Translations under genes and position numbers: made by a program
The notes under the pieces: generated by a model
The model's database searches: none
Seen by the model: only the letters and a program-made list of their open reading frames with translations
What the model was told of the DNA's origin: nothing
Origin: Clostridia bacterium
Lineage (GTDB): Bacteria; Bacillota; Clostridia; Oscillospirales; CAG-272
Reading direction: 5' to 3'
DNA length: 64,000 nucleotides
Assembly: GCA_017467085.1 (NCBI GenBank)
Contig: JAFTSW010000008.1
Coordinates: 1,174 to 65,173, forward strand
Part shown: positions 21,521 through 41,214 of the stretch, in pieces
Numbering within the stretch: position 1 is the first letter of the stretch
Layout of the letters: the number at the start of each line of letters is the position of its first letter

Positions 21521-22753
21521 TCAAATCTCCTGTTTGATTTGTTCGGCAAGCGCCGCAATCTCCCCGTCGCCGTCAAGCGTCACGTCCGCCTCTCTTTTGT
21601 AGAGCGGAAGCCTGTACGCATAAAGGGCAGTCAGCCGTTCCTTGTCCGAGGAAAGGGGTCTGTCGGCGGTGGGCAAGAGCTTATCCAGGGAGCGATTTAG
21701 GAAGAAAAGCTTGCCGTTCTGCTTCAAGCGGCGCATATTTTCGTGGTTCAGAACCGCGCCGCCCCCCGTGGCAATCACAACCCCCGACTCGGCGGAAAGG
21801 TCGGCAATGACCCTTGCCTCCTCGATGCGGAAGGCAGGCTCGCCGTAGGTGTTGAGGTATTCGGGAATAGGCATACCCAGCCGCTCGGTCAAAACGGCGT
21901 CAGAGTCTAAAAAGCGCCGTCCCAAAAGCTGTGCCGTTGCTTTTCCCACCGTGCTTTTGCCCGAGGAGGGCATACCGATTAAAACGGCGTTTTCCTTCTC
22001 CGCCAACATAGCGGCGTAAATCTCGTCGATTTGGTCAAGCCGCGGTGGGGTGGAAAAGAAATGGGATGCGGCGTATACCGCCTGGGCAACCAGCATATAA
22101 AGACCGCCAACCGCGGGAATACCGCCTGCCTCTGCCTGTTGCACCAGAGCAGTACGCAGAGGATGGTAAATGGCGTCCGCCACCCCCGAAAGCTGTGGGA
22201 AGCGGGAAATATCAATGGGAAGCGCCTCGGGAGAGGGGAACATACCGACAGGGGTGGTGTTGACTATCACCTGGGCGTCCGTATGAAGGGAAAGCGCCTC
22301 CTCGTAGGTCAAAATCCCCTCCTGCTTCCTTCTGGAAACACGAAAGACCGCCTTCGCCCCCTCTGCCTTTGCCACAGCAAGGGCGGTTGCGGAGGTGCCG
22401 CCCGTGCCGAGAATCAAAACCTTCTTCCCCGAAAGGGAAATGCCCCCCACCGCAAGCAAACGGGACAGCCCGTAAAAATCGGTGTTGTAGCCGTAAAGGC
22501 GCCCTTCTCGGTTGACAACGGTGTTCACAGCGCCGATGGCGCGCGCCGCCTCGTCAATCTCGTCTAAATAGGGAATAACGTCCTTCTTGTAGGGAATGGT
22601 CACGTTGATGGCGCAAAAATCCCGCTCGGTCATAAATGCGTCAAGACCGTCCCTGGGGATTTCCCGAAGCTCGTAAGGGTAGTCCCCGATTTTGCGGTGA
22701 ATTTCGCAGGAATAGCTATGGGAGAGATGCTCTCCGATTAAGCCGTATTTCAT
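21521..22753 (-). CDS. aroE/aroK: fused shikimate dehydrogenase / shikimate kinase
   Basis: The N-terminal AroE part has YGLIG...NVTIPYK...GTGG. The C-terminal kinase part has the P-loop LIGMPSSGKSTVGK. ATGA overlap with the aroC stop. Confidence 0.9.
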   Translation of the reverse strand: MKYGLIGEHLSHSYSCEIHRKIGDYPYELREIPRDGLDAFMTERDFCAINVTIPYKKDVIPYLDEIDEAARAIGAVNTVVNREGRLYGYNTDFYGLSRLLAVGGISLSGKKVLILGTGGTSATALAVAKAEGAKAVFRVSRRKQEGILTYEEALSLHTDAQVIVNTTPVGMFPSPEALPIDISRFPQLSGVADAIYHPLRTALVQQAEAGGIPAVGGLYMLVAQAVYAASHFFSTPPRLDQIDEIYAAMLAEKENAVLIGMPSSGKSTVGKATAQLLGRRFLDSDAVLTERLGMPIPEYLNTYGEPAFRIEEARVIADLSAESGVVIATGGGAVLNHENMRRLKQNGKLFFLNRSLDKLLPTADRPLSSDKERLTALYAYRLPLYKREADVTLDGDGEIAALAEQIKQEI

Positions 22754-23850
22754 GACTTGGGAATTCCTTTCAAAAGCACGTCCGTGCCGTAGCGCGCGGT
22801 GAGCATATCGCAAAGCACGAAAGCCGTCACGCTGTCAATCACAGGGCAAATGCGGCGGATAATGGCAGGGTCGTGGCGCCCCTCTATGGAAAGCTCCACC
22901 TCCTGCATTTCTATAAAGTCTACCGTTCTCTGGGTCTTGGCAATAGAGGGGGTGGGCTTCACCGCACAGGAGAAGAGAAGAGGCATACCGTTTGTAATGC
23001 CGCCGTTGACGCCGCCGTTTTTGTTGGTTTCGGTGACAACGCATCCGTCCTTGATGCGGAAGGGGTCGTTGGCCTCGCTGCCGCGAAGGGAGGCAAAGCC
23101 GAAGCCCTCGCCAAAGGCAATGCCCTTGATGCCGCCAATGCTGAATAAGGCGTGAGAAAGCAGACTCTCCACGCTGTCAAACCAGGGCTCCCCAAGACCT
23201 GCGGGAAGACCGCAAACGGCGCTTTCCGTCCTGCCGCCAATGCTGTCGCAGTCGGCTCTTGCCGCTAAAATCTCCTTGGAAATCGCCTCGGCGGCGTGGG
23301 GGTCAAGGGTGGGGAAGGTGCTTTCCTCTAAGGCGTCAATGTCTGCCCGTATATCCCCGAAGGGACGGTCAAGGGCATCGCCGCAGGCGGCAATATGGGT
23401 GCCAAGGGTGATGCCCAAGCGCCCAAGGGCGGGTATCAGAATACCGCCAACGGCAACCAGGGCAGCCGTAATTCTTCCCGAAAAGTGACCGCCGCCCCGA
23501 TAGTCCTCGAAGCCGTGGTACTTGGCGTAGGCGGCGTAATCCGCGTGGGAGGGACGGGCATTGCCGTAGCGGTAGTCGCCGCTTTTGGTGTTTTCGTTGG
23601 GAATGAGAATACAAAGGGGTGAGCCCGTGGTTTTTCCGTTAAAGACACCGCTGACAATCTGGAAATTGTCCTTTTCTCTTCTGGGGGTGTCAAGGGCGGA
23701 TCTGGGACGCCTTTTGCTTAAAAGTCTTTCTATTTCCGCCTCGTCTACGGGAATGCCGGGGGCAATCCCGTCCAAAACGGCGCCAATATGGGAGCCGTGG
23801 CTTTCCCCGAACAGGGTCAGGGAAAGGGAGGTGCCAATCGTGTTTTTCAT
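22750..23850 (-). CDS. aroC: chorismate synthase
   Basis: GESHG near the N-terminus, RPSHADY and GGGHFSGR motifs. Confidence 0.95.
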   Translation of the reverse strand: MKNTIGTSLSLTLFGESHGSHIGAVLDGIAPGIPVDEAEIERLLSKRRPRSALDTPRREKDNFQIVSGVFNGKTTGSPLCILIPNENTKSGDYRYGNARPSHADYAAYAKYHGFEDYRGGGHFSGRITAALVAVGGILIPALGRLGITLGTHIAACGDALDRPFGDIRADIDALEESTFPTLDPHAAEAISKEILAARADCDSIGGRTESAVCGLPAGLGEPWFDSVESLLSHALFSIGGIKGIAFGEGFGFASLRGSEANDPFRIKDGCVVTETNKNGGVNGGITNGMPLLFSCAVKPTPSIAKTQRTVDFIEMQEVELSIEGRHDPAIIRRICPVIDSVTAFVLCDMLTARYGTDVLLKGIPKS

Positions 23851-23887
23851 CGTGTTCTCCGTTCTGCGCCCGCAAGTGCTTTGGGCG

Positions 23888-24874
23888 TTATTTTATAGAA
23901 AGCAGCGCCTCGGGGCTCACCGTCTTAAAGACGAAGGAGCCAAGCTCCTCCGCAAAAACGGCAATCACACCCGCCTTGTCCATTTTCTTGTCCCGTACCA
24001 GGTATGGCAACAGCGCCTCGGGTGAGGCGTCCGTCTTGACGGGAAGCGCATACTTTTCGAGAAGAGGGATAAGCCGTCTGAGAACCGCAGGGGATGCGGC
24101 GTAGGTCATACCGAGCGCCACGCATTCGCCGTGAAGCAGCGCGCCGTTTGCGTAGGCCTCAATGGCGTGTCCCACGGTGTGCCCGAAGTTCAGGGCGCGG
24201 CGCAGTCCCGCCTCCTTGAAGTCCTCCTCCACAACCGCCTTCTTGATGCGAAGGGATTGCTCGATAATGACGGGCAGGTCATCCTCTAAGCTCTCGCTTT
24301 TTTCGATGAGGGAGAAAAGGCTCTCGTCGAAGGTTGTCGCCATCTTAATAGCCTCGGCAAGCCCTGCGTGAAGCTGGCGCTTGTCCAAGGTTTTCAGGGT
24401 GTCGGGGTCAATCAGAACCCGACGGGGCTTGTAAAAGGCGCCTACAATGTTCTTGACCCCCTCAAAATCAATGGCGGTCTTGCCCCCGATAGAGGAATCC
24501 ACCTGGGAAAGCAGGGTGGTGGGAATGTTGTAAAAATCAATACCGCGCATATAGCAGGCGGCGGCAAAGCCGCTTAAATCGCCTACAACGCCGCCACCCA
24601 CCGCCACCACACAGTCGCGGCGCGTAAAGGCAGAAGCCACCATCTCGCGGAGTAAAAGGGCAAAGCTGTCTAAATTCTTGCTTGCCTCTCCTTGAGGCAG
24701 CACCACGGTGTGCGCCTCCCGACAGGCGGCGGCAACTGCTTCGGCATAAGCGGCAGGAACGCCGCTGTCCGTTACCACAAGCACGCGCCTGTCCAAATCC
24801 AGGTATTCACCCACCTTGGCAAGAGCGCCTTTTTCCAGAATGATATCGTATTCACCCGAAACGGATAAAATCAT
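23888..24874 (-). CDS. aroB: 3-dehydroquinate synthase
   Basis: GGGVVGDLSGFAAA and NFGHTVGHAIE motifs. Confidence 0.9.
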   Translation of the reverse strand: MILSVSGEYDIILEKGALAKVGEYLDLDRRVLVVTDSGVPAAYAEAVAAACREAHTVVLPQGEASKNLDSFALLLREMVASAFTRRDCVVAVGGGVVGDLSGFAAACYMRGIDFYNIPTTLLSQVDSSIGGKTAIDFEGVKNIVGAFYKPRRVLIDPDTLKTLDKRQLHAGLAEAIKMATTFDESLFSLIEKSESLEDDLPVIIEQSLRIKKAVVEEDFKEAGLRRALNFGHTVGHAIEAYANGALLHGECVALGMTYAASPAVLRRLIPLLEKYALPVKTDASPEALLPYLVRDKKMDKAGVIAVFAEELGSFVFKTVSPEALLSIK

Positions 24875-24892
24875 ATCCTGTTCCTACCTTCT

Positions 24893-25993
24893 TTATTTAA
24901 TGGTTTCTACGTAATAGCTGCCAACCAGCTTCAGCTTAGCGCAAATTGCCGACAGCTCGCAAAGCATATCCTCGCCGTTTTCGGTGTGGATGTTGCCCTC
25001 GGCCTCAATGTAGAAGTAGTAGCTCCATTCCAAATCCTTCATAGGACGGCTGCGCAGGTTACGCATATTGAAGCCGTGGGCACCCACGATGTTCAAGGCG
25101 TTAGCAAGGGAGCCTGCCTTGTTCTGTACGGTGAATACCAGAATGAAGTTCTCGCTTTCCTTTCTGTCGGTGGGGGCGGGGATGTTTCTCTCCTTGGAGA
25201 AGGAGGCAAAGCGCGTCACGTTGATTTTGCTGTCGTTGATGGCGCTCTCCAAAATCTGCAAGCCGAAAATAGAGGCGGTTTCCTCCGAGGCAATGGCGGC
25301 AATGGTGGGGTCGCCGGCGTTCTTCACGTATTCGGCAGCCAGCGCGGTGTTGGAGAAAACTTTGGTTTCTAAGCCGTGGGCGCGAATGTAGTCGGCGCAT
25401 TGGTCAAGCGCCTGGGGATGGCTCAATACCGTCTTGACGGTGTCCTTGGTGGCACCGGGGCAGGCAATCAGATGATGCACAATGGGCACGTCAATGACCT
25501 GGTTGATATGCAAATCTCCCGAGAAAATCAAATCCATTACCGTGCCAACCTCGCCTGCGTAGCTGTTCTCCAAGGGAAGAACGGCGCAGTCATAGGAGCC
25601 CTTTTCTACTGCCGCGTAGGCGTCCGCGAAATCGGCAAAGGCGGAAAGCTCAGCGGCAGGGAAGAGACGCTTGGCGGCAATGTGGGCGTAGGCACCCAGG
25701 GTTCCCGAATAGGTCACGCGCATACCCGTCATCAGCTTGTCCTGGTAGTCGCAGGAAATATCAATCACGTTCCGCAAAAAGCGGGCGTAGTAGGGCTCAA
25801 TGGCGGTAGAGGAAATATAGCTGCAATTCTTTTCAATCAGCGCCCTTTCTCTTGCCTCGTCCTTGACGGAAAGCCCGTTTGCCTTCTTGTGAGCGGCAAT
25901 CCTTTCAGCCGCCGCCATCCGTCTTTCAAACAGAAGCGCCATTTCCTTATCAATTTCGTTGATTTCTTTTCTTGCTTGCTCTAAATCGTTCAT
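24893..25993 (-). CDS. pheA: bifunctional chorismate mutase / prephenate dehydratase (P-protein type, with ACT domain)
   Basis: Start MNDLEQARKEINEIDKEMALLFERRM (chorismate mutase helix), a PDT core (ENSYAGEV, TRF) and a C-terminal ACT-like region. Confidence 0.9.
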   Translation of the reverse strand: MNDLEQARKEINEIDKEMALLFERRMAAAERIAAHKKANGLSVKDEARERALIEKNCSYISSTAIEPYYARFLRNVIDISCDYQDKLMTGMRVTYSGTLGAYAHIAAKRLFPAAELSAFADFADAYAAVEKGSYDCAVLPLENSYAGEVGTVMDLIFSGDLHINQVIDVPIVHHLIACPGATKDTVKTVLSHPQALDQCADYIRAHGLETKVFSNTALAAEYVKNAGDPTIAAIASEETASIFGLQILESAINDSKINVTRFASFSKERNIPAPTDRKESENFILVFTVQNKAGSLANALNIVGAHGFNMRNLRSRPMKDLEWSYYFYIEAEGNIHTENGEDMLCELSAICAKLKLVGSYYVETIK

Positions 25994-26040
25994 TTTTATA
26001 TGCTCCGTTTCTTGCCTGTGGCAAAACAAATAATAAACCA

Positions 26041-26075
26041 AAAAAGAAGGAGCCCTTCCGTTCGGGAAGAGCTCC
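26041..26075 (-). terminator. leader terminator T2 upstream of pheA
   Basis: The minus strand reads GGAGCTCTTCC-cgaac-GGAAGGGCTCC followed by TTCTTTTT, about 50 nt before the pheA start. Confidence 0.7.
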
Positions 26076-26312: not shown

Positions 26313-26405
26313 GGGCTATTTGGCAATTATTTGCTGAAAAACAGCCTGTTTTTACATTTTTTTTCGCAGGGACGCAAAAAAATACAAAAAAATTCAAAAA
26401 ACCTC

Positions 26406-26434
26406 TTGACAAACCGCCGCGAGTGTGCTAAAAT
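26406..26434 (+). promoter_or_regulatory. sigma-A promoter of T-box leader 1
   Basis: TTGACA, 17 nt spacer, TGcTAAAAT. Confidence 0.65.
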
Positions 26435-26439
26435 CGTAC

Positions 26440-26698
26440 CAAATTTGAAAAGGCAATGACGAAGACGGGCTTCTTGGATAGCGGCAAAGAGAAACGGCGG
26501 TTGGTGCGAGCCGTAGCGCAGAGAGAAAGACCCTATCACTTCCGAGCCGGGAGCCTGAACGCAGTAGGGCTTCACGAGAGGCACAGCGTGAGTGTGCAGA
26601 GGTTGCTTGACCTCGTAAAGTGGCGTCTTATGGCGCAATTTGAGTGGTACCGCGAGTGTTTTCACCCGCCTCAAAGAATTTTCTTTGGGGCGGTTTTT
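26440..26698 (+). promoter_or_regulatory. T-box leader 1 (candidate specifier AUC, Ile)
   Basis: Stem I has an ATGA/GA kink-turn, an AGAGA bulge and the distal loop GTTGGTGCGAGCC. The T-box sequence AATTTGAGTGGTACCGCG lies at 26637..26654. The terminator is ccgcctcaaag/ctttggggcgg plus T5. ATC-A sits directly 5' of the lower-stem strand CTTC (26535..26538). Confidence 0.85.
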
Positions 26699-26732
26699 AT
26701 TTTATAAAAAATTTTTAAGGAGGATGTTCGTT

Positions 26733-29000
26733 ATGAATACAAACAACACGCAAAGTCGGTTATCGGAGATTGCAACCCGTATTAAGGAGCTGCGCGAGAT
26801 TATGGGCTTTTCCGTTGCGGAAATGACCGGGAAAACCGATGTGGACGAGGCTACCTATCTTTCTTATGAAAGCGGTACGGTGGACATTCCCTTCTCCTTT
26901 ATTCATAAGTGCGCGCTGGCATTCGGCGTTGAAATGACCGAGCTTTTGGAGGGCAGCACGGCAAAGCTCTCCACCTATACGGTCACAAGAAAGGGCAGAG
27001 GACAGGGAACCGCCAAGGAGGACGGCATCGATATTGCCAACCTGGCGCCCAAGTTCAAGGATAAGCTGGCAGAGCCCTACTACGTTACCTACGAGTATTC
27101 CCAGGCGCAGCAGAACAAGCCCATTCATCTGACCACCCACAGCGGCCAGGAATTTGACTTGGTGCTGAGCGGTAAGCTGAAAATCCAGGTCGGTGAGCAT
27201 ACCGAATTTCTGGAGGAGGGGGACAGCATCTATTACAATTCCTCCATTCCGCACGGTATGATTGCCGTAGACGGCAAGGACTGCACCTTCGTTGCGGTGG
27301 TTATGTCGGGCGACAACTCCAATGAAACGGTTGTCAGAAAGAGCGTTATCGCCGCCAAGAAGAGCGAGGCGCTGGTTTGCGAAAAATTCCTTGACGTAAA
27401 GGAAAACGCAAACGGGGAATTGGAGAGCATCCGCTTCAAGAATACCGAAAGCTTCAACTTTGGCTTCGACATCGTGGACGGCATTGCAGACAGCTATCCC
27501 GAAAAGCTGGCTATGCTTCATCTTGACAGAAACAAGAACGAGCGCCGCTTCACCTTCAAGGATATCAAGAAGGCGTCCAACCAGGTGGCAAACTATTTCA
27601 CCTCCCTTGGCATCAAGCGGGGCGATAAGGTTATGCTGGTGTTAAAGCGCCATTACCAGTTCTGGTTCTGTATGGTTGCGCTGCATAAGCTGGGCGCTAT
27701 CGCCATCCCCGCAACCAACCAGCTGAAGGAGCACGATTTTGAGTATCGCTACAATTCCGCAGGGGTTAAGGCAATCGTCTGCACCGCTGACGGTGATACC
27801 TATACCTATGCCCAAAGCGCCGCCAAAAAGTGTCCCCAGGTGGAAAAGCTTCTGATGGTCGGCGGTGTCAGAGAGGGCTGGCTTGATTTTGATAAGGAAT
27901 ATAAGCTCTTCTCCAGCAAGTTCGAGCGTCCCGCCGACTGCTCCGCGGGAGATGACCTTGCTCTGATGTTCTTCACCTCGGGTACCACGGGTAACCCCAA
28001 AATGGCAGCCCATAAGCATACCTACGCCCTGGGTCACTACGTGACGGCAAAATATTGGCACTGCTGTGAGCGTGATGGCTTGCATCTGACCATTTCCGAT
28101 ACGGGCTGGGGCAAATCCCTCTGGGGCAAGCTCTACGGCCAATGGCTCTGCGAGGGAGCGGTGTTCGTCTATGACTTCGATAAGTTTGACGAGAACGATT
28201 TGCTTCCTATGTTTGCCGAGTACAATATCACCACCTTCTGCGCGCCGCCCACGATGCTCAGAATGCTCATCCGCGGCGACCTTTCCAAGTTCGATTTGTC
28301 CTCTATCCACCATATGACCACCGCAGGCGAGGCGTTGAACCCCGAGGTGTTCAACCAGTTCAAAACGGCAACGGGTCTTGAAATTATGGAGGGCTTCGGG
28401 CAGACGGAAACCACCCTTGCTATTGCGAACCTTTACGGTATGACGCCCAAAATCGGCGCGATGGGTAAGGCAAATCCCCAGTATGACGTGGACGTGGTAG
28501 ACGCCGACGGCAAATCTCTTCCCGCGGGTGAAATCGGCGAAATCGTCATTCACACGGACAAGGAGGTTCCTTGCGGTCTGTTCAAGGAATACTACCGCGA
28601 CAGTGAAAAAACGGTGGACGCCTGGCACGACGGCCTGTATCACACGGGCGACACCGCTTGGCGGGATGAGGACGGCTACTTCTGGTACGTTGGGCGTGTG
28701 GATGACGTTATCAAGTCCTCGGGCTACCGCATCGGGCCCTTTGAAATCGAAAGCGTCATTATGGAGCTGCCGTACGTGTTGGAATGCGGCGTTTCCGCTG
28801 CTCCCGACCCCGTCAGAGGGCAGGTGGTCAAGGCAAGCGTTGTTCTCGTGAAGGGAACCGAGCCCACCGATGCGCTGAAAAAGGAAATCCAGAATTACGT
28901 CAAGGAGCATACCGCCCCCTACAAGTATCCCCGTATCGTGGTGTTCCGCGACTCTCTTCCCAAAACCATCAGCGGCAAGATTCAGAGAAACAAGCTTTAA
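26733..29000 (+). CDS. fusion protein: XRE-type HTH + cupin (PuuR-like) + medium-chain (ACSM/MACS-like) AMP-forming acyl-CoA synthetase
   Basis: ATG lies behind TAAGGAGG. aa 1-70 carry the HTH (RIKELREIMGFSVAEM...). aa ~110-200 carry the cupin (HSGQEFDLVLSGKLKIQVG...GDSIYYNSSIPHG). The remainder is the ligase, with FFTSGTTGNPK, GFGQTETT, YHTGD, SSGYRIGPFEIE and PKTISGKIQR. Confidence 0.85.
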   Translation: MNTNNTQSRLSEIATRIKELREIMGFSVAEMTGKTDVDEATYLSYESGTVDIPFSFIHKCALAFGVEMTELLEGSTAKLSTYTVTRKGRGQGTAKEDGIDIANLAPKFKDKLAEPYYVTYEYSQAQQNKPIHLTTHSGQEFDLVLSGKLKIQVGEHTEFLEEGDSIYYNSSIPHGMIAVDGKDCTFVAVVMSGDNSNETVVRKSVIAAKKSEALVCEKFLDVKENANGELESIRFKNTESFNFGFDIVDGIADSYPEKLAMLHLDRNKNERRFTFKDIKKASNQVANYFTSLGIKRGDKVMLVLKRHYQFWFCMVALHKLGAIAIPATNQLKEHDFEYRYNSAGVKAIVCTADGDTYTYAQSAAKKCPQVEKLLMVGGVREGWLDFDKEYKLFSSKFERPADCSAGDDLALMFFTSGTTGNPKMAAHKHTYALGHYVTAKYWHCCERDGLHLTISDTGWGKSLWGKLYGQWLCEGAVFVYDFDKFDENDLLPMFAEYNITTFCAPPTMLRMLIRGDLSKFDLSSIHHMTTAGEALNPEVFNQFKTATGLEIMEGFGQTETTLAIANLYGMTPKIGAMGKANPQYDVDVVDADGKSLPAGEIGEIVIHTDKEVPCGLFKEYYRDSEKTVDAWHDGLYHTGDTAWRDEDGYFWYVGRVDDVIKSSGYRIGPFEIESVIMELPYVLECGVSAAPDPVRGQVVKASVVLVKGTEPTDALKKEIQNYVKEHTAPYKYPRIVVFRDSLPKTISGKIQRNKL

Positions 29001-29108
29001 TGCATAGATGGGTGCGGTCTGCCTCTATTTGGACCGCACCCGACTCCCCCATCTGTTATATTTTTAATATAATGGATAAATTTGTATCCGAAAAATTGAA
29101 AAAAACAG

Positions 29109-29137
29109 TTGACAAATACTTGAAAGTGTGGTAATAT
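29109..29137 (+). promoter_or_regulatory. sigma-A promoter of T-box leader 2
   Basis: TTGACA, 17 nt spacer, TGgTAATAT. Confidence 0.65.
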
Positions 29138-29144
29138 CTCTTTA

Positions 29145-29417
29145 TAAAGCTATAAAGGCGTTGACGAAGAGTGCAGGTATGTGGCTTTTTCAGAGAAGCG
29201 GCGGTTGGTGCGAGCCGTTAAAATGCTATCCCCTGTTTGTAGCTTCCGAGCCGAGAGGAAGAAAGAGTATCGAGTAGAACCTCTCCGCGTTTGCTGCGTA
29301 AGTGCATACGGGTTGATTGACCCTGAGGGGCGGCTTTTGCCGCAATTTGAGTGGTACCGCGGGTTTTGATGTAACAAGCTCGTCTCAAAGTATTTATCTT
29401 TGTGGCGGGCTTTTTTT
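29145..29417 (+). promoter_or_regulatory. T-box leader 2 (candidate specifier GUA, Val)
   Basis: Same architecture as leader 1: TTGA/GA kink-turn, AGAGA, GTTGGTGCGAGCC. T-box AATTTGAGTGGTACCGCG lies at 29344..29361. The terminator is gctcgtctcaaag/ctttgtggcgggc plus T7. GTA-G precedes the lower-stem strand CTTC (29239..29242). Confidence 0.8.
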
Positions 29418-29443
29418 GTCGCCATAACAATCTTGGAGGAAAT

Positions 29444-31729
29444 ATGCAAGGAATTACGGGACTGGATTTGAAAATAAAGGAAATGGCAAACCGTATCCGT
29501 GAGCTTCGTGAAATCGAGGGCTTGACGGTGGTGGAGATGGCTGCCAAAACGGGTGTGTCCGAGGCAGAATATCTTGCCTGTGAAAACGGCGAGTCCGATT
29601 TGAACTTTGCCTTTATCTATCGCTGTGCCTCCGCCTTCAACGTGGACGTAACAGATATTATCGAGGGTAAAAGCCCCACGCTGAAGTCCTATACCTTAAC
29701 GAGAAGCGGACAGGGTCAGCGCATCGAAGAGGCGCACGGAATGACCTATTTCAACCTAGCATCCGCCTTCCGTAACCGTATCGCCGAGCCCCTGTACGTT
29801 TGCAGCCGTTATAGCGAAAAGGCGCAAACGGGGGACATTGAGCTGACTACCCACGATGGGCAGGAGTGCGATATCGTTCTCAGCGGTCACCTGAAAATTC
29901 AGATTGGCTCTCATATTGAGGTTCTCGGCCCCGGTGACAGCATTTATTACGATAGCTCCACACCTCACGGTATGATTGCCGTGGAGGGTGAGGACTGTCG
30001 CTTCTACGCCATTGTGCTGAATCCCACGGGCGAGCCCATTCCCGAGCTGCAGCCCTCCAAGGCGGTCCAGAGCCGTCCTGCCAAGCGTGACGATAAGGAA
30101 AGAGTCTATTCTGCCTTCGTAGACACCGAGGAGGACGAAAACGGTACCCCCACCTCTATTACCTTCAAAAACACCGACACCTTTAACTTTGCCTACGATG
30201 TAGTAGACAAAATTGCCGAGAAGGAGCCGAGAAAGCTTGCCCTCTTGCACGTGGCAAGCGATAAGACGGAAACCAGGCTTTCCTTCTCCGATATCAAGAA
30301 AAATTCCTGCCGCGCCGCCAACTACTTTAAGTCCCTCGGCATCAAGAAGGGGGACCGCGTGATGCTGGTGCTGGGCAGACACTACCAGTTCTGGTACGCC
30401 ATTCTTGGGCTTCACCGCCTGGGCGCTATCGCCATTCCTGCCATGAACCAGCTGCTGGACCACGACTTAGAATACCGCTTCAAGGCGGCAGGCGTGTCCG
30501 CTATCCTCTGTACGGGGAAGGGCGGCGTTTCCACCGAGGTGGATAAGGCAGAGGCGCAGCTTGGCAGAAGCCTTATCAAGATTATGGTAGGCGGCAAAAA
30601 GGAGGGCTGGCGCAGCTTTGACGAGGAATGCGCCTTATACAGCACCCACTTTGACCGTACCGCCGATACCCCCTGTGGCAACGATACGCTTCTGATGTTC
30701 TTCACCTCCGGCACCACGGGCTATCCCAAAATCGCCGTACATAACCATAAGTACCCCCTGGGTCACTTCCACACCGCCAAGTATTGGCACAACGTGGACT
30801 CGGACGGCTTGCACTTCACCATCTCGGATACGGGCTGGGCAAAGGCGCTCTGGGGCAAGCTCTACGGTCAATGGCTCTGCGAGGCGGCAACCTTTGTGTA
30901 CGATTTCGAGCGCTTCCACGCGGACGATATCCTTCCTATGTTCGCCAAGTACCAGATTACCACCTTCTGCGCACCGCCCACGATGCTCCGTATGATGGTC
31001 AAGGAGGACATCTCCAAGTACGACCTCTCCTCCGTCAAGCATATGACCACGGCAGGCGAAGCGCTGAACCCCGAGGTTTACCGCCAATTCGAGGAAGCCA
31101 CGGGCTTGCAGATTCTGGAGGGCTTCGGTCAGTCCGAAAGCACTATGATTATCGGAAACCTGCGGGGCGCGCCTCATAAGATTGGCTCTATGGGCAAGCC
31201 TGCCCCCATTTACGACGTGGAGCTGCTCTCCGCTGACGGCAAGCAGGTTCCCGTGGGTGAATCGGGTGAAATCGTTGTCAAGATTGCAAACGGCTCTCCC
31301 TGCGGACTCTTCGACGGCTATTACCAGGACGAGGAAAAGACCCGCGAGGTCAAGCACGATGGCTACTACCATACGGGCGACGTCGCCTGGCGTGACGAGG
31401 ACGGCTTCTATTGGTACGTCGGTCGTGTGGATGACGTTATCAAGTCCTCGGGCTACCGCATCGGGCCCTTTGAAATCGAAAGCGTTATTATGGAGCTGCC
31501 GTACGTCTTGGAATGCGGCGTTTCCGCCGCACCCGACCCCGTCAGAGGTCAGGTGGTAAAGGCGAGCATCGTGCTGGTGCCGGGCACCGTTGCCTCGGAC
31601 GCCCTCGTCAAGGAAATCCAGGACTACGTCAAGACCCATACCGCACCCTACAAGTATCCCAGAATTATCGTTTTCCGTGACGCGCTTCCCAAAACCGCCA
31701 GCGGAAAAATCCAAAGAAATCTGCTGTAA
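29444..31729 (+). CDS. paralogous fusion protein: XRE-type HTH + cupin + ACSM/MACS-like acyl-CoA synthetase
   Basis: ATG lies behind GGAGGA. Same three-domain layout as 26733..29000. The N-terminal ~250 aa are strongly diverged from the paralog, while the C-terminal ligase subdomain is nearly identical. Confidence 0.85.
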   Translation: MQGITGLDLKIKEMANRIRELREIEGLTVVEMAAKTGVSEAEYLACENGESDLNFAFIYRCASAFNVDVTDIIEGKSPTLKSYTLTRSGQGQRIEEAHGMTYFNLASAFRNRIAEPLYVCSRYSEKAQTGDIELTTHDGQECDIVLSGHLKIQIGSHIEVLGPGDSIYYDSSTPHGMIAVEGEDCRFYAIVLNPTGEPIPELQPSKAVQSRPAKRDDKERVYSAFVDTEEDENGTPTSITFKNTDTFNFAYDVVDKIAEKEPRKLALLHVASDKTETRLSFSDIKKNSCRAANYFKSLGIKKGDRVMLVLGRHYQFWYAILGLHRLGAIAIPAMNQLLDHDLEYRFKAAGVSAILCTGKGGVSTEVDKAEAQLGRSLIKIMVGGKKEGWRSFDEECALYSTHFDRTADTPCGNDTLLMFFTSGTTGYPKIAVHNHKYPLGHFHTAKYWHNVDSDGLHFTISDTGWAKALWGKLYGQWLCEAATFVYDFERFHADDILPMFAKYQITTFCAPPTMLRMMVKEDISKYDLSSVKHMTTAGEALNPEVYRQFEEATGLQILEGFGQSESTMIIGNLRGAPHKIGSMGKPAPIYDVELLSADGKQVPVGESGEIVVKIANGSPCGLFDGYYQDEEKTREVKHDGYYHTGDVAWRDEDGFYWYVGRVDDVIKSSGYRIGPFEIESVIMELPYVLECGVSAAPDPVRGQVVKASIVLVPGTVASDALVKEIQDYVKTHTAPYKYPRIIVFRDALPKTASGKIQRNLL

Positions 31730-31758: not shown

Positions 31759-32418
31759 ATGCAGGAAAAAAGAATTACTATTTTTTCAGGGCACTACGGC
31801 AGCGGCAAAACCAATATCGCCGTCAATCACGCTCTTGCCCTGAGGGAAAAGCATTCACGGGTTGTCATTGCCGACATCGACATCGTCAACCCCTATTTCA
31901 GAACCAAGGATAGCGAGGCGCTTTTAGCGGAGCGCGATATCCGCCTTATCTGCTCGGCGTACGCCAACAGTAACGTGGATATTCCCGCCCTGCCCCCCGA
32001 AATCTACGCCGTGACGGACGATAAGTCCCTCTATGCGGTGCTGGACGTGGGCGGCGATGAGCGAGGCGCCCTCGCCCTTGGCAGATTGGTTCCCGCTATC
32101 AGAGAGGAGAACGATTACGAGATGGTGTTCGTCTTGAATCGCTTCCGTCCGCTGACACGGGATTTGGACGGTGTTTTCACCGTTATGCGTGAAATCGAGG
32201 CGGCGTGCGGACTCCGCTTTACCGCCCTGATTAACAACTCCAACCTTGGTGCGGAAACCACCGAGGAGGACGTGCGCGGCTCCGTTGCCTTCGCCAAGGA
32301 GGTTGCCGCCGCCGCCAATATTCCATTTTGGTATACAACGGTACACGAATCGCTCTGGCATCTGTTTTCCCAAGAGAGCGAGGACTACCGCCCCATATTA
32401 TTACAAAAACGTATGTAA
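31759..32418 (+). CDS. P-loop NTPase of the MinD/ParA/CooC-like (SIMIBI) type, function unknown
   Basis: The N-terminal ITIFSGHYGSGKTNIAVN is a deviant Walker A. The DIDIVNPYF and LDVGGDERG patterns are present. It sits between the ligase and the oxidoreductase genes. Confidence 0.6.
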   Translation: MQEKRITIFSGHYGSGKTNIAVNHALALREKHSRVVIADIDIVNPYFRTKDSEALLAERDIRLICSAYANSNVDIPALPPEIYAVTDDKSLYAVLDVGGDERGALALGRLVPAIREENDYEMVFVLNRFRPLTRDLDGVFTVMREIEAACGLRFTALINNSNLGAETTEEDVRGSVAFAKEVAAAANIPFWYTTVHESLWHLFSQESEDYRPILLQKRM

Positions 32419-32429
32419 AGGAGAATACC

Positions 32430-32636
32430 ATGGCAAAATTAACCTTCAAAGCAGAAAAATGCAAGGGCTGTGGCCTTTGTGTTGACGCTTGTCCCAAGCA
32501 GGTTCTGGCGCTTGACGCCGATACCATCAACCAGAAGGGACACCATCCCGTCAAGGCGGTCAACGAGGAGGCGTGCATTGGCTGTGCCTTCTGCGCCACC
32601 ATGTGTCCCGATTGCATCATTAAGGTAGAAAGGTGA
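32430..32636 (+). CDS. 2-oxoacid:ferredoxin oxidoreductase delta subunit (2x[4Fe-4S] ferredoxin)
   Basis: 68 aa with the clusters CKGCGLCVDACP and CIGCAFCATMCP. Confidence 0.85.
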   Translation: MAKLTFKAEKCKGCGLCVDACPKQVLALDADTINQKGHHPVKAVNEEACIGCAFCATMCPDCIIKVER

Positions 32637-32644
32637 GAAAAGCA

Positions 32645-33706
32645 ATGTCTGATAAGGTATTAATGAAAGGCAACGAAGCCATTGCCGAGGCCGCCATCAT
32701 CGCAGGCTGCCGTCATTATTTTGGCTACCCCATTACCCCCCAAACCGAAATTGCCGCTTATATGGCAAAGAGAATGCCCAAAATCGGCGGCACCTTCCTG
32801 CAGGCCGAGAGCGAAATTGCCGCCATCAATATGGTATACGGCGTTTCCGCAACGGGCAAGCGCGTGATGACCTCCTCCTCCAGCCCCGGAATTTCTCTGA
32901 AGGGCGAGGGACTTTCCTACTTAGCAGGTGCTGACCTGCCTGCCTTGGTGGTCAACGTGCAGCGCGGCGGCCCCGGTCTTGGCGGTATTCAGCCCTCCCA
33001 GAGCGACTATTTCCAGGCAACCAAGGGCGGCGCTCACGGTGACTTCCATATGCTGGTTCTGGCGCCTGCCTCCGTCCAGGAAATGGCAGAGTTGACGGTC
33101 AAGGGCTTTGCCCTGGCGGACAAGTACCGTATGACCTCTATGATTCTGGCAGACGGTACGATGGGTCAGATGATGGAGCCCGTTTCTCTCTCCTTCGATA
33201 TCGAGGAGGCTCCCGCAAAGCCCTGGGCTGTAACGGGGACCAAGCTTGAAAGACCCCACAACATCGTAAACTCTCTGTTCTTAAAGCCCGAAGAGCTGGA
33301 AAGAACCAACTTCGAGCGTTACGAGCGTTATAAGTACATCGAGGAAAACGAAGTGATGTACGAGGAATATATGATGGAGGATGCGGAAATCTGCGTGGCA
33401 GCCTTCGGCATTGCCGCCCGTGTTTCCAAGAACGCCATCAACGAGGCAAGAGCCAAGGGCATCAAGGTGGGTATGATTCGTCCCATCACCCTCTGGCCCT
33501 TCCCCACCAAGCAGTTTGCCGCGGCAGCAGAGAAGGTCAAGGCCTTCGTGTCCGTGGAGCTTTCTATGGGACAGATGATTGAGGACGTTCGCCTGGCAGT
33601 TAACGGCAAGGCGCCCGTTACTCTTTGCAACAGAGCAGGCGGTATGATTCCTGCGCCCGAACAGGTGCTGGCAGCGATTGAGGCCGCCAATAAAGGAGGT
33701 AACTGA
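32645..33706 (+). CDS. 2-oxoacid:ferredoxin oxidoreductase alpha subunit (VOR/KOR type)
   Basis: [31 protein letters not shown] is the typical N-terminus of the POR_N domain. Length and order fit a four-subunit OFOR. Confidence 0.85.
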
Positions 33707-33707
33707 A

Positions 33708-34451
33708 ATGGTAGTATTTGATAAACCCCATGCGCTTTCCGATGCGCCCCTGCATTATTGCCCCGGCTGTACCCACGGCATCGTGCATCGCCTGGTTGCC
33801 GAGGTAATGGACGAGCTTGGCATTGAGGGAAGAACCATTGGTATTGCCCCCGTTGGCTGCTCGGTTATGGCATATGACTATTTTAACTGCGATATGATTG
33901 AGGCTGCCCACGGCAGAGCTCCCGCCGTTGCGACGGGCGTAAAGCGCTCCGACCCCAATAACATCGTTTTCACCTACCAGGGTGACGGCGACCTTGCCTC
34001 CATCGGTATGGCAGAAACGGTACATAGCGCCGCCAGAAACGAAAATATCACCGTTATCTTTATCAACAACGCCATCTACGGTATGACGGGCGGACAAATG
34101 GCGCCCACCTCCTTGCCCGGACAGGTCACCCAGACCTCTCCCTACGGACGTGACGTTTCTCATTGCGGCTTCCCCATCAAGGTTTGCGAAATGCTTTCCC
34201 AGCTGGACGGCCCCGAGTATCTGGAGCGTGTAGCGGTCAACAACGTCAAGAACGTCAAGAACGCCAAGAAGGCTATCAAGAAGGCTTTTGAAAACCAGGT
34301 CAACGGAAAGGGCTTCTCCTTGGTAGAGGTCATTTCCTCCTGCCCCACCAACTGGGGTATGACGCCTGCTAAGGCTTTGGCTTGGATTGACGAGAAAATG
34401 ATTCCTTATTATCCTCTCGGGGTATATAAGGACAGAAGCGCAGGAAAGTAA
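33708..34451 (+). CDS. 2-oxoacid:ferredoxin oxidoreductase beta subunit (TPP-binding)
   Basis: YCPGCTHGI cysteine motif and the GDGD TPP-binding region. Confidence 0.85.
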
Positions 34452-34463
34452 GGAGGAAGGACG

Positions 34464-35006
34464 ATGAAAACAACCCAGTATTTGTTTGCAGGCTTTGGCG
34501 GACAGGGCATTCTGTTCGCAGGTAAGTTTTTGGCATACCAGGGACTCAACGATGGCAAGAACGTCAGCTGGCTCCCCTCCTACGGTCCCGAAATGCGTGG
34601 CGGTACGGCAAGCTGCAGCGTCATCATCAGCGATATTCCCGTTGGCTCTCCCATCGTGTCGAATCCCGACGTATTGATTGCGATGAACCTGCCCTCCCTG
34701 GATAAGTACGAGTCCACCGTTGCCCCCGGCGGCACCATCTTCGTGGATTCCACGCTGATTTCCCGTAAGGTTACCCGTACCGACGTGACCGTGCATTACA
34801 TTCCTGCCACTCAGATGGCATCCGACAACAAAACCCCCACCCTTGCCAATATGATTATTATGGGTAAGGTTCTGGCAGAAAGCGGCACCTTCGAGGATGA
34901 GGAAAAGGTGCTTGCCGCCCTGCAGAAGGTTATCTCCGCAAAGCGTGCCGATATGTTAGACGTCAACCTTGGCGCTCTTCGCCTCGGCAAGGATTATCAA
35001 GGTTAA
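34464..35006 (+). CDS. 2-oxoacid:ferredoxin oxidoreductase gamma subunit
   Basis: 180 aa with the FAGFGGQGILFAGK N-terminus typical of gamma subunits. Confidence 0.85.
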   Translation: MKTTQYLFAGFGGQGILFAGKFLAYQGLNDGKNVSWLPSYGPEMRGGTASCSVIISDIPVGSPIVSNPDVLIAMNLPSLDKYESTVAPGGTIFVDSTLISRKVTRTDVTVHYIPATQMASDNKTPTLANMIIMGKVLAESGTFEDEEKVLAALQKVISAKRADMLDVNLGALRLGKDYQG

Positions 35007-35040: not shown

Positions 35041-36108
35041 ATGGAAATCAAAATCACCAGAAATCCTAACCCCGGTGTAAAGCCCGAGCCCTCCGTTCTG
35101 GGCTTCGGTAAATATTTCACCGACCATATGTTTATGATGGACTATTCCGCAGAGGAGGGCTGGCACGATGCCAGAATCGTCCCCTTCGGTCCTCTGATGC
35201 TCCATCCTGCCTGCACAGCCCTGCATTACGGAAGCGAAATCTTCGAGGGCTTGAAGGCATACCGCCGTGCTGACGGCAAGGTACAGCTCTTCCGCCCCAT
35301 CGAGAATATCCGCCGTATGAATCGCTCTGCCGAGCGTCTTTGCCTGCCCACCGTTCCCGAGGAGCTGGCAATGGAGGTTCTGACCAAGTTCATCTCCTTT
35401 GAACAGGATTGGACGCCCTCTGCCCCCGGCACCTCGCTCTATATCCGTCCCTTTATGTTCGGTAATGACGAAACCTTGGGTGTTCACGCGGTGAAGCACG
35501 CCACCTTCGTTATCATCACCTCTCCCGTAGGCAGCTACTATAAGGAGGGCATCAACCCCGTTAAGATTATGATTGAAGCAGACGATGTCCGCGCTGTTCG
35601 CGGCGGTACGGGTGAAGCCAAGTGCGGCGGTAACTACGCCGCCTCCAACCGCGCGGGTGAAAAGGCTGAAAAGGCCGGCTATTCTCAGGTGCTGTGGCTC
35701 GACGGTGTTGAGCGCAAGTACATCGAGGAGGTCGGCGCTATGAACGTTATGTTCAAGATTGACGGCGAGGTTGTTACCCCCGCGCTTCTCGGCTCCATTC
35801 TGCCTGGCATCACCAGAAAGTCCTGCCTTGAGCTTCTGCGCGCCGAGGGCTACCGTGTCAGCGAGCGCCGCTTGAGCATCGATGAGTTGGCAAAGGCATT
35901 GGAGGAGGGCAAGCTCGAGGAGGCTTGGGGCTGCGGCACCGCCGCCGTTATCTCTCCTATCGGTGAGCTTTGCTATATGGGCAAGAAGTACACCATCAAT
36001 AACGGCGAAATCGGCGAGGTGACTGCTCACCTCTACAATTCCTTGACGGGCATCCAGTGGGGAACCCTTCCCGATACCTATGGCTGGACTCTTCCCATTG
36101 AGGACTAA
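35041..36108 (+). CDS. ilvE: branched-chain amino acid aminotransferase
   Basis: 355 aa class-IV aminotransferase pattern (FEGLKAYR, EVGAMNVMF, GITR). Confidence 0.9.
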   Translation: MEIKITRNPNPGVKPEPSVLGFGKYFTDHMFMMDYSAEEGWHDARIVPFGPLMLHPACTALHYGSEIFEGLKAYRRADGKVQLFRPIENIRRMNRSAERLCLPTVPEELAMEVLTKFISFEQDWTPSAPGTSLYIRPFMFGNDETLGVHAVKHATFVIITSPVGSYYKEGINPVKIMIEADDVRAVRGGTGEAKCGGNYAASNRAGEKAEKAGYSQVLWLDGVERKYIEEVGAMNVMFKIDGEVVTPALLGSILPGITRKSCLELLRAEGYRVSERRLSIDELAKALEEGKLEEAWGCGTAAVISPIGELCYMGKKYTINNGEIGEVTAHLYNSLTGIQWGTLPDTYGWTLPIED

Positions 36109-36147: not shown

Positions 36148-36176
36148 TTGACAAAACCGAATGGCTGTGGTATAAT
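36148..36176 (+). promoter_or_regulatory. sigma-A promoter of T-box leader 3
   Basis: TTGACA, 17 nt spacer, TATAAT. Confidence 0.65.
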
Positions 36177-36184
36177 GCTCGTAT

Positions 36185-36449
36185 CAAATTTCAAATGCGA
36201 TGAAGGAATTATTTCTTTTCCTCATTTTACTGCAGAGAGTCGGCGGTTGGTGCAAGCCGATGTAAAGGGTTAAGAAAGTCTCATTCCGGAGCAGAATTTC
36301 CGAACCGAAAGTAAGAAATTCCGTATGCCTCGTTATCGGCTAATGGCTTGTTAGAGCCTGAGAGTGACCGTTTTTTAACGGTAATCAGGGTGGTACCGCG
36401 AAAAGTATTTTTCGTCCCTGAAGCGATTGCTTCAGGGGCGTTTTGTTTT
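36185..36449 (+). promoter_or_regulatory. T-box leader 3 (candidate specifier CUC, Leu)
   Basis: GATGA/GA kink-turn, AGAGAG, distal loop GTTGGTGCAAGCC. T-box AATCAGGGTGGTACCGCG lies at 36383..36400. The terminator is cgtccctgaagc/gcttcaggggcg plus TTTTGTTTT. CTC-A precedes the lower-stem strand TTCC (36280..36283). Confidence 0.85.
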
Positions 36450-36479
36450 ATTTTACCCATCACGAAAGGAAGAGAAACT

Positions 36480-40387: not shown

Positions 40388-41214
40388 TGATACAAGGAAA
40401 ATATACGGTGATAGACGCCCATTGTCATATCTATCCCGAGAAAATCGCCTCCCGTGCCGTCAACGGAACGGATACCTTTTACGGGCTTTCCTCCTTTGGA
40501 GAGGGAACGGTCAGGCATCTGTTAGGGGTAGGTGAGGAATCGGGAATTGACGGGTATCTTGTCCAGTCTGTCGCCACCACACCGCACCAGGTTTCCAGCA
40601 TCAACCGCTTTATCGCCGAAGAGGTCAATCTCTATCGGGGTAAAATGGTAGGGCTTGGCACCCTGCATCCCGACTCTGCCGATATTCTGGGTGACGTGGA
40701 GGAAATTGAGGCGTTAGGGCTTCACGGCGTTAAGCTGCACCCCGACATCCAGCGCTTCCGCGCGGATGACGATGCCTGTGCCGAGATTTACGCCCTCTGT
40801 GAAAAGAAGGGACTCCCCATTCTGATGCACGCAGGGGACCACCGCTACGATTATTCCAACCCCAACCGCCTTGCCCCCGTCCTTGCGTCGCATCCCGCGC
40901 TATGTATGGTGGCGGCGCATCTGGGCGGCTGGTCTGTCTGGGAGGACGCCAAGGAAAAGCTCTCGGGCTTCTCCAACCTCTACGTGGATACCTCCTCCTC
41001 CTTCCCCTTTTTAATGGAAGGGGAGGCAAGGGAGATTATCGAGGCTTTCGGCGTTTCCCACGTCCTCTTTGCCACGGACTATCCTATGTGGCACCCCAAG
41101 GGGGAAATTGAGTATCTGCTTCGCTTAGGCTTCACGGATGAGGAATACAAAATGCTCTTTTCCGAGAATGCCAAGGCCGTTTTCGGTAAGGAAAATTTCT
41201 CCTCTCTTATTTGA
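40387..41214 (+). CDS. amidohydrolase-2 family metal-dependent hydrolase/decarboxylase-like TIM barrel
   Basis: TAATG overlap with the upstream gene. N-terminal VIDAHCHIYPE, later HGVKLHP, MHAGD and FATDYP. Confidence 0.75.
   Translation: MIQGKYTVIDAHCHIYPEKIASRAVNGTDTFYGLSSFGEGTVRHLLGVGEESGIDGYLVQSVATTPHQVSSINRFIAEEVNLYRGKMVGLGTLHPDSADILGDVEEIEALGLHGVKLHPDIQRFRADDDACAEIYALCEKKGLPILMHAGDHRYDYSNPNRLAPVLASHPALCMVAAHLGGWSVWEDAKEKLSGFSNLYVDTSSSFPFLMEGEAREIIEAFGVSHVLFATDYPMWHPKGEIEYLLRLGFTDEEYKMLFSENAKAVFGKENFSSLI

Follow-up and report, generated by a model that had tools for sequence, protein, structure and literature searches.

The locus described here raises a simple question: what does a helix-turn-helix (HTH) and cupin module, laid out as in XRE-cupin transcription factors, do at the front of an acyl-CoA ligase? 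Module and ligase are joined in one polypeptide, twice in succession, in a 64,000-nt stretch of DNA (the window) from a Clostridia bacterium of the Oscillospirales lineage CAG-272 (contig JAFTSW010000008.1, positions 1,174 to 65,173). Paralogue A (P1) is an HTH-cupin-linker-ligase fusion of 755 aa encoded at 26733..29000, and paralogue B (P2), 761 aa in length, is encoded at 29444..31729, both on the plus strand; genes of the P1 and P2 types in other genomes are referred to as A and B, respectively. The two genes encode MbcS-like ligases under T-box control, which are paired with a conserved module under selection and stand in the gene context of an operon for the formation of Ile and Val from acyl-CoA. 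The answer that we favour, with confidence about evenly balanced, is that the module is a non-DNA-reading, ligand-sensing partner domain that tunes the ligase, rather than part of an enzyme-repressor.

The open reading frames (ORFs) of P1 and P2 contain no internal stops, and each is preceded by a Shine-Dalgarno sequence (AAGGAGG at 26717-26723 for P1, GGAGG at 29435-29439 for P2). In P1, Pfam detects HTH_19 at aa 16-74 (28.7 bits, just short of the cut-off of 30.2), Cupin_2 at aa 134-189 (44.2 bits, cut-off 27.2), AMP-binding at aa 252-621 (219 bits) and AMP-binding_C at aa 671-749 (76 bits). P2 exceeds the cut-offs for both HTH_19 (32.2 bits) and HTH_3 (31.2 bits) and likewise contains Cupin_2 (44.9 bits), AMP-binding (208 bits) and AMP-binding_C (73.6 bits). 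The approximate spans common to both proteins are aa 16-75 for the HTH, 131-190 for Cupin_2 and 252-627 for AMP-binding, and the motifs RIKELREIMGFSVAEM, H-x-G-x-E and GDSIYYNSSIPHG are present in the translations. On the basis of these matches, of NCBIfam, of homologues and of an alignment with E. coli Acs, P1 is divided into a five-helix XRE-type HTH (aa 9-75, 26757..26957), a cupin barrel (aa 76-192, 26958..27308), a variable linker (aa 193-235, 27309..27437; 26-31% identity among relatives) and a ligase of the ANL superfamily comprising AMP-binding and AMP-binding_C (27438..29000). The corresponding parts of P2 are located at 29471-29671, 29672-30022, 30023-30163 and 30164-31729, again on the plus strand. 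Overall, P1 and P2 are 61% identical.

All 120 best matches in a collection of 5.8 billion proteins are 754-784 aa long and share the same four domains. They originate from Clostridia metagenome-assembled genomes (MAGs), and the fusion architecture is present in databases, but only under generic names such as “AMP-binding protein” or “cupin domain-containing protein”. When genomes, one for each species, were scanned with a five-sequence alignment as the query, at least 595 matching stretches were obtained; the best 80 loci were examined and all belong to gut or rumen Clostridia, namely Christensenellaceae (closest, 90%), Acutalibacteraceae, Oscillospiraceae and Ruminococcaceae. The related loci L001-L082, 80 of which are the genome loci from the species scan, contain approximately 125 matches to the N-terminal module (N-module). 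Every 3'-complete gene among them is a fusion of 753-771 aa, one disrupted copy excepted, and the usual layout is a tandem A + B pair. The sole disrupted copy is a B-type second gene in an Acutalibacteraceae MAG (L025:3348-3674), which is shortened to ~108 aa by a stop or frameshift.

That a sequencing or assembly frameshift wrongly joins a regulator gene and a ligase gene retains practically no probability, since both window paralogues are fused and the same frame recurs in hundreds of protein clusters and in the independently assembled genomes of at least 80 species. More than 100 orthologues, all from Clostridia of the gut or rumen, keep the fusion frame open, and hence it is not a frameshift artefact; on these sequence comparisons, an assembly artefact is regarded as excluded for the fusions. 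An earlier note on this DNA, made from the letters alone (the sequence-only reading), had proposed an HTH, a cupin and an ACSM/MACS-type ligase in one frame in two paralogues. The stop-free ORFs, the Pfam matches that delimit HTH, Cupin_2 and AMP-binding, and structure prediction confirm this layout, and the survey of architecture and neighbours finds it in at least 80 species-level genomes and an operon order that is conserved in dozens of species.

AlphaFold2, run on residues 1-240 with 34 diverse relatives, predicts five helices followed by a β-barrel at a mean predicted local distance difference test score (pLDDT) of 88.8, with values of 93-98 in the HTH and 90-98 in the cupin of P1. The N-terminal region is thus predicted to fold as HTH and cupin. 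The linker is modelled with low confidence: its block 201-210 averages a pLDDT of 52, and in a full-length model the segment 190-239 falls below 50. Within the HTH of P1, which carries a net charge of -6, helix 4 (aa 51-64) is nearly invariant. In the cupin, H136, E140 and H174 are invariant and align with H138, E142 and H180 of HppE, forming a predicted metal site. Many module residues are invariant across phyla.

The only solved structures that match across both module domains, by Foldseek and profile searches, are 1y9q, a structural-genomics “regulator” (52 bits by profile), and the HppE/Psf4/HEPD/MPnS enzymes (40 bits for HppE, at 16-18% identity). Foldseek and profile matches to XRE repressors were also obtained, and a single-sequence search of the PDB with the N-module gave no match. 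E. coli PuuR and SutR are merely 16-18% identical to the module. Accordingly, the label “PuuR-like” used by the sequence-only reading is apt for the architecture only.

When residues 1-240 were searched against 1.84 billion representative proteins, further full-length fusions were recovered at 38-46% identity, together with many stand-alone proteins of ~185 aa at 33-45% identity. Reverse-order fusions, in which the ligase precedes the HTH-cupin, were found as well (P0263 and its full-length relative P0410, 755 aa, L090:965-3232). A later profile search of proteins with the N-module returned the same close fusions and added neither diversity nor names. Next downstream of the P0410 gene lies a second, unfused ligase gene. 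Another protein, P0203 (401 aa), combines a cytidylate kinase with an HTH-cupin that belongs to this subfamily and shares 38% identity with the P1 module.

For all seven stand-alone HTH-cupin clusters examined, two of which are from Bacteroidota, a ligase gene lies 13-40 nt downstream on the same strand. Where complete, these ligases comprise 550-561 aa; the one at L087 is cut by the contig end and was identified by tblastn. A metagenome scan for stand-alone relatives gave the same picture among its best 80 loci: 60 have a ligase directly downstream and one more after a longer gap, in nine the contig ends too soon to accommodate one, and genuine exceptions number only about four, which leaves 61 of ~65 testable loci with an adjacent ligase. 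The split versions, which lack the linker, contain a genuine stop codon, a Shine-Dalgarno sequence and an ATG at their junctions; hence, they represent two genes and not a recoded one. Stop-codon read-through or recoding was considered, since in some pairs both genes share a frame, and was rejected: every ligase gene starts with an ATG behind a Shine-Dalgarno sequence of its own, and in one pair the frames differ. On these comparisons, the N-module constitutes a distinct XRE-cupin subfamily that is almost always found with this ligase. That different phyla conserve a unit of HTH-cupin and MACS-type ligase, be it as two genes or fused in either order, is the kind of pattern that classically signals a direct functional link. 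No T-box was detected at the split versions, and some other regulation is therefore expected there.

Does the module bind DNA? The net charge of the HTH ranges from -3 to -8 in 37 aligned fusions and from -2 to -10 in 24 stand-alone relatives, compared to +1 to +5 in proven binders. The HTH of 1y9q carries +3, the HTH-like domain of HppE, which does not bind DNA, -4, and the 434 repressor and SinR presumably +4 and +2, if the sequences that we assume for them are correct. Across helix 2, turn and helix 3 the module has a net charge of -3 to -4, versus -1 and +1 in PuuR and SutR. Entropy was analysed in 63 A and 36 B orthologues. Positions 28, 39, 40, 43 and 44, which on our assumed mapping onto the 434 repressor are base-reading, show an entropy of 2-3.4 bits and are often Glu, Val, Pro or Leu, and the equivalents of Q17, Q28, Q29 and Q33 of the 434 repressor vary even among close orthologues. 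In helix 4, by contrast, D51, P53, F54, F56, H58, K59 and C60 are almost invariant (entropy ~0).

The search for an operator points in the same direction. When 65 A and 33 B promoters are aligned by their hexamers, the information content is near zero beyond the -35 element, the extended -10 element and UP-like A/T tracts. Fusion promoters do contain an excess of inverted repeats (z = 8 and 4), which were rejected as operators, as they correspond to upstream terminator hairpins and to T-tract/A-tract UP-like elements. Upstream of 57 split genes, neither an excess of palindromes (z = 1.7) nor a shared motif was found, and inverted repeats upstream of six split-system genes comprised only AT-rich chance palindromes and terminators. 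A TGTACA core noticed by eye in two split loci did not recur and was dismissed.

Taken together, the acidic HTH, the variable reading positions, the lack of an operator in these searches, the distance from PuuR and SutR and the HppE-type structural neighbours render DNA binding unlikely, and the module probably does not bind DNA. The sequence-only reading had envisaged a one-component regulator that converts a short acid and controls DNA in response to it or its product; the acidic HTH, the variable reading positions and the lack of a conserved operator in ~100 aligned promoters argue against that proposal. Proteins of this subfamily that are annotated as “XRE family transcriptional regulator” or “cupin domain-containing protein” may thus not be transcription regulators.

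The divergence of the two paralogues indicates which part of the fusion follows the pathway. In 38 genomes carrying both A and B, segment identities were computed between orthologues (A-A, B-B) and between paralogues (A-B). The HTH is 61% (A-A), 71% (B-B) and 47% (A-B) identical, and the cupin 75%, 70% and 55%. For the first half of the ligase N-domain the values are 69%, 69% and 64%, for its second half 76%, 76% and 70%, and for the ligase C-domain 89%, 88% and 88%. Overall, the ligase ranges from 69-89% between orthologues and from 63-89% between paralogues. With orthologues as the yardstick, the earlier claim of a stronger divergence in the N-modules than in the ligase parts is borne out, the cupin being 55% identical between paralogues versus 63-89% for the ligase. 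Gene conversion was examined as the cause of low ligase divergence between tandem paralogues; the excess of identity within the same genome is just 1-2.5 points, and hence its contribution is at most minor.

Seventeen positions are fixed within yet different between A and B: six in the HTH, eight in the cupin, one in the linker and two in the ligase. None of the six HTH positions is in helix 2 or 3, and three are in helix 4. The cupin positions include H132E, four residues before the metal-type His, and one of the two ligase positions is G460 in A, an Ala in B, at the site of Acs V310. By this measure, it is chiefly the N-module that varies in step with the Ile or Val T-box. The sequence-only reading had suggested that the two modules recognise different ligands or operators. 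The concentration of paralogue-specific residues in the module (14 of 17) supports different ligands, and their absence from the recognition helix argues against different operators.

The ligase part is most similar to the solved structure 3etc (642 bits over the whole length), which we take to be the 2-methylbutyrate-preferring enzyme of Methanosarcina acetivorans, and next to 4-hydroxybutyrate-CoA ligase and human ACSM2A; the earlier ACSM/MACS assignment therefore stands. The best NCBIfam model for both ligases is MbcS, at 452 and 433 bits versus an equivalog cut-off of 850, which makes them, judged by these scores, relatives of MbcS and not strict equivalogs. The catalytic Lys is kept, K749 of P1 and K755 of P2 aligning with K609 of E. 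coli Acs. The position of Acs W414 is occupied by Gly in both ligases (G556 in P1, G562 in P2), and that of V310 by Gly in A (G460) and by Ala in B (A466); both Acs residues are presumed here to form the acyl pocket, which the replacement of Trp by Gly would enlarge. The difference of one methyl group between Gly and Ala would mirror that between C5 and C4 substrates. MbcS activates 2-methylbutyrate and isobutyrate and hardly isovalerate (PMC10026030).

Upstream of paralogue A lies a T-box leader (26447..26676, plus strand; Rfam RF00230, 82.2 bits, E 4.8e-17) with the Ile specifier AUC at 26535-26537, a T-box core at ~26641-26655 and a terminator stem at 26666-26693 that is followed by a T-run. 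The leader of paralogue B (29152..29390, plus strand; RF00230, 89.6 bits, E 6e-19) has the Val specifier GUA at 29239-29241 and a terminator hairpin with a T-run reaching ~29418. Both leaders, identified at a relaxed threshold, score under the Rfam gathering score of 93, yet are full-length (model positions 1-219). Among the related loci, 75 of 77 A genes are preceded by a T-box core, as are 40 of 43 B genes. Essentially all A-type leaders carry the specifier ATC, whereas 38 of 40 B-type leaders carry GTA or GTC. The T-box control invoked by the sequence-only reading thus exists and, with a separate leader in front of either paralogue, is more direct than had been stated.

Transcription of both leaders is predicted to start from near-consensus promoters on the plus strand. 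The promoter of paralogue A (26406..26434; score 11/12) consists of TTGACA, a 17-nt spacer and a TG-extended TAAAAT, preceded by an A/T-tract UP-like element, and that of paralogue B (29109..29137) of TTGACA, a 17-nt spacer and a TG-extended TAATAT. Nearly all A and B leaders have such a near-consensus promoter, which is kept in 65 A-type and 33 B-type orthologous leaders; this suggests strong constitutive initiation with control left to the T-box. The T-tract/A-tract block 5' of the -35 element (window 26360-26434 and 29060-29137; promoters of L003-L082) resembles a full UP element, and the promoter consensus reads TTGACA, 17 nt, TGnTAnAAT.

Paralogue B heads an operon on the plus strand, in which it is followed by a P-loop NTPase gene of the CbiA/ParA/NUBPL-like type (31759..32418; Pfam), by genes for a ferredoxin-type 4Fe-4S subunit and three subunits of a 2-oxoacid:ferredoxin oxidoreductase of the VOR type (32430..35006; Pfam, NF005507 VorB and synteny), and by ilvE as the last gene, coding for the branched-chain amino acid aminotransferase (35041..36108; NF009897). 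VorB scores 536 bits versus a cut-off of 399 and IlvE 473 versus 307. No strong promoter or terminator was detected between 29444 and 36108, and the gene order A, B, ATPase, ferredoxin, VorABG, IlvE is repeated in dozens of species. In the window, VOR and IlvE are placed only behind the Val-controlled ligase B; in several relatives lacking B, the Ile-controlled A heads the same operon. The NTPase (219 aa), whose CbiA/ParA/NUBPL-type matches are weak, belongs to no NCBIfam family. Its gene is present in 45 of 82 related loci and invariably separates the ligase gene from those for ferredoxin and VOR; it might help to mature or activate the Fe-S oxidoreductase.

Rumen anaerobes classically turn isobutyrate and 2-methylbutyrate into Val and Ile. 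The role of branched volatile fatty acids as amino-acid precursors in these organisms is touched on in PMC7356843. Because of the Ile and Val specifiers, the VOR and IlvE context and the homology to MbcS, P1 is the predicted 2-methylbutyrate-CoA ligase of an Ile branch, and P2 the predicted isobutyrate-CoA ligase of a Val branch. The best reading of the operon is the salvage of 2-methylbutyrate to Ile and of isobutyrate to Val.

Two distant loci depart from this arrangement. L002 (2111-7978) harbours tandem fusions of 769 and 758 aa followed by a class I/II aminotransferase gene instead of VOR and IlvE, with an Ile T-box only at the first gene; in the second gene product (P0170) the ligase motif region is changed, “FLQSYSYGMAKP” replacing “FFTSGTTGNPK”. 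At L001, a locus without VOR and IlvE genes, a SAM-I/IV riboswitch (3020-3152, 60 bits) lies 3' of a distant fusion gene (P0139).

From these elements, the following mechanism can be proposed. The acid would be converted by the ligase to its acyl-CoA, reductively carboxylated by 2-ketoisovalerate:ferredoxin oxidoreductase and transaminated by IlvE, each ligase gene being switched on by its own T-box when the matching tRNA, for Ile in the case of A and for Val in the case of B, is uncharged. The module would derive from an XRE-cupin regulator that became a dedicated partner of the ligase. Its His/Glu/His cupin pocket, capped by the invariant helix 4, would bind a pathway-specific small molecule, candidates being the acid itself, the acyl-AMP or acyl-CoA formed from it, and the amino acid at the end of the pathway. 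Ligand binding would tune or gate the attached ligase and thereby provide a fast post-translational layer on top of T-box control. The sequence-only reading had offered recruitment of the HTH-cupin as a substrate-sensing allosteric domain as its alternative, and it is this alternative that we favour, sensing and allostery being deduced. A bolder version is put forward more tentatively: a repressor-derived HTH-cupin may serve as a dedicated non-DNA-binding sensor subunit across Firmicutes and Bacteroidota, and the module, not the near-identical catalytic core, might confer Ile or Val pathway specificity, e.g., through feedback by the matching amino acid or acyl-CoA.

Several points weigh against a non-DNA-reading sensor. 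Net charge alone does not exclude DNA binding, and the module retains the canonical features of the XRE fold, among them the R21-E46 pair and the pattern of hydrophobic residues in helix 3. The operator searches covered the A and B promoters and the regions upstream of split genes, and an operator elsewhere in the genome is possible. PuuR has the His/Glu/His positions of the cupin, and hence the triad does not separate sensors from regulators. The substrates are deduced solely from the T-box specifiers and homology, and no ligand, metal or protein-protein contact of the module was observed. Structure prediction, which the sequence-only reading had recommended for the full-length protein, served well for the N-module; the full-length AlphaFold2 model (50 sequences, 78-91% identical; mean pLDDT 57, predicted template modelling score 0.48) is too poor to reveal an interface between module and ligase. 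Finally, no T-box accompanies the split versions, and XRE-cupin proteins typically act as local repressors that are transcribed together with their targets (PMC7901475).

The last point leads to the principal competitor, a bifunctional enzyme-repressor akin to BirA, PutA or NadR, in which the HTH would bind an operator as a cupin-mediated dimer and the cupin or ligase site would report the acid or acyl-adenylate. The fold is indeed that of XRE-cupin regulators, characterised members of which repress adjacent metabolic genes and bind palindromes as dimers (PMC7901475); the split versions, which lack a T-box, place the regulator gene before the enzyme gene, as autoregulated operons typically do; and FadD1 has been reported as an acyl-CoA ligase that acts as a ligand-responsive DNA-binding regulator (PMC12754631). 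Yet, the negative charge of helix 2, turn and helix 3 relative to PuuR and SutR, the variability of the positions equivalent to the 434 glutamines, and the identity to PuuR and SutR of only 16-18% are poorly compatible with this explanation. The same holds for the ~100 aligned promoters, which keep only the -35, extended -10 and UP-like elements, for the upstream regions of split genes, which share no palindrome and show no excess of them, and for helices 2 and 3, which harbour no paralogue-specific residue. We therefore consider the enzyme-repressor rather unlikely.

A catalytic role of the cupin is improbable in our view. As a metal-dependent isomerase, epimerase or lyase, for example, it would act on the acid or acyl-CoA, and the fusion would be a two-step enzyme. 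H136, E140 and H174 match the iron ligands of HppE, the HppE, Psf4, HEPD and MPnS enzymes are the best two-domain structural matches after 1y9q, and consecutive enzymes typically show such a strict association with a single enzyme family, whichever partner comes first in the fusion. However, the salvage route needs no extra chemical step between acid and amino acid, the three positions also occur in PuuR, a proven regulator, the similarity to HppE is remote (40 bits by profile, 16-18% identity), and the oxygen or peroxide chemistry of the HppE group is unlikely in gut and rumen anaerobes. Very improbable, too, is a vestigial passenger, i.e., a local repressor that was fused by loss of a stop codon, has since lost its function and is carried neutrally. 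In its favour, no more than a stop codon, a Shine-Dalgarno sequence and a few bases set the split forms apart from the fused ones, in some cases without a change of frame, and the DNA-reading surface looks degenerate. Nevertheless, orthologues conserve the cupin (70-75%) to the same degree as the catalytic domain, many residues are invariant across phyla, each paralogue has its own fixed residue at 14 module positions, both fusion orders have arisen, and the frame is open in more than 100 genes.

Further genes of the window flank the A and B genes or lie farther away. A third operon (36148-41214) starts with a perfect promoter (36148-36176) and a Leu T-box (CUC specifier; 36191-36422, 127 bits). 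It comprises a LeuA-like gene (36477-37871), a gene for an 839-aa fusion of a xylose-isomerase-like TIM barrel and a FadD-type acyl-CoA ligase (37868-40387) and an amidohydrolase gene (40387-41214). This trio adjoins A/B ligases in 13-23 related loci and may represent an isovalerate/Leu branch. On the other side, a divergent shikimate/aromatic operon occupies 21521-26041 on the minus strand, with a 12/12 promoter match at 26312-26284; it encodes a fused shikimate dehydrogenase-shikimate kinase, chorismate synthase, 3-dehydroquinate synthase and chorismate mutase-prephenate dehydratase. At L084, a split HTH-cupin/ligase pair also adjoins shikimate genes. A tRNA gene is located at 58692-58763 (Rfam, 64.9 bits).

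Many cellulolytic and other gut or rumen Clostridia need or use branched-chain volatile fatty acids. If the proposed reading is true, the cluster, consisting of ligase A (Ile), ligase B (Val), the P-loop ATPase, VOR, IlvE and the nearby Leu-T-box operon, would be the gene set, together with its on-switch, for the use of these acids in hundreds of species. On the bolder version, the three T-boxes and the module together would point out the genes by which anaerobes of the gut and rumen use branched volatile fatty acids as precursors of amino acids, a trait long known in them. Moreover, a transcription-factor fold would have been reused as a built-in sensor of an adenylate-forming enzyme. Few ways of restraining these ATP-consuming enzymes are known, protein acylation being the classic one, and in the bolder version the module would represent a new class of allosteric domain for ANL enzymes. 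It would also call for caution with annotations that name proteins of this subfamily as transcription regulators. No paper on the fusion, the gene cluster or T-box control of an acyl-CoA synthetase was found in the literature, and a recent MbcS paper does not mention cupin or HTH partners.

Compared to known systems, the ligase parts resemble MbcS of Staphylococcus aureus and 3etc, short/medium branched-chain acyl-CoA synthetases of the ANL superfamily, and their pocket and catalytic residues follow the family pattern. The two acids activated by MbcS are those implied here by the Ile and Val T-boxes. Unlike the window proteins, MbcS and 3etc lack an HTH-cupin module, and MbcS feeds fatty-acid synthesis, whereas the gene context in the window points to amino-acid synthesis.

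The module shares with the XRE-cupin factors (PuuR and SutR; PsdR, PauR and ErfA of Pseudomonas) the five-helix XRE HTH followed by a cupin, and its stand-alone relatives are of the same size, ~185 aa. It differs in the acidic, unconserved recognition region, in the lack of a palindromic operator in the searches made, in its covalent fusion to an enzyme and in the restriction of the subfamily to a single enzyme family across phyla. The HppE, Psf4, HEPD and MPnS enzymes of phosphonate metabolism likewise combine an HTH-like alpha domain with a cupin, and their metal-ligand positions align with those of the module. In HppE, the alpha domain serves the cupin pocket rather than DNA. These enzymes perform oxygen or peroxide chemistry on phosphonates, whereas catalysis is improbable for the module, and the sequence similarity is remote. 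Genes for XRE-cupin regulators adjoin the metabolic genes to which they relate (PMC7901475).

With regard to architecture only, BirA, PutA and NadR likewise unite in a single polypeptide an enzyme and a domain of the DNA-binding type. Among them, BirA is also a ligase that forms an adenylate, which serves as its co-repressor, and it does not adopt the ANL fold. FadD1 of Pseudomonas aeruginosa is reported to bind the lasR promoter in response to a fatty acid (PMC12754631), using a leucine-zipper motif inside the ligase, in contrast to the added HTH of the window fusions. For all four proteins operators have been demonstrated, whereas none is detectable at the window promoters or at the related promoters searched. 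The leaders, finally, conform to the T-box amino-acid operons of Firmicutes: they possess the same stem I with specifier, T-box core and terminator, and the specifier matches the predicted product amino acid.

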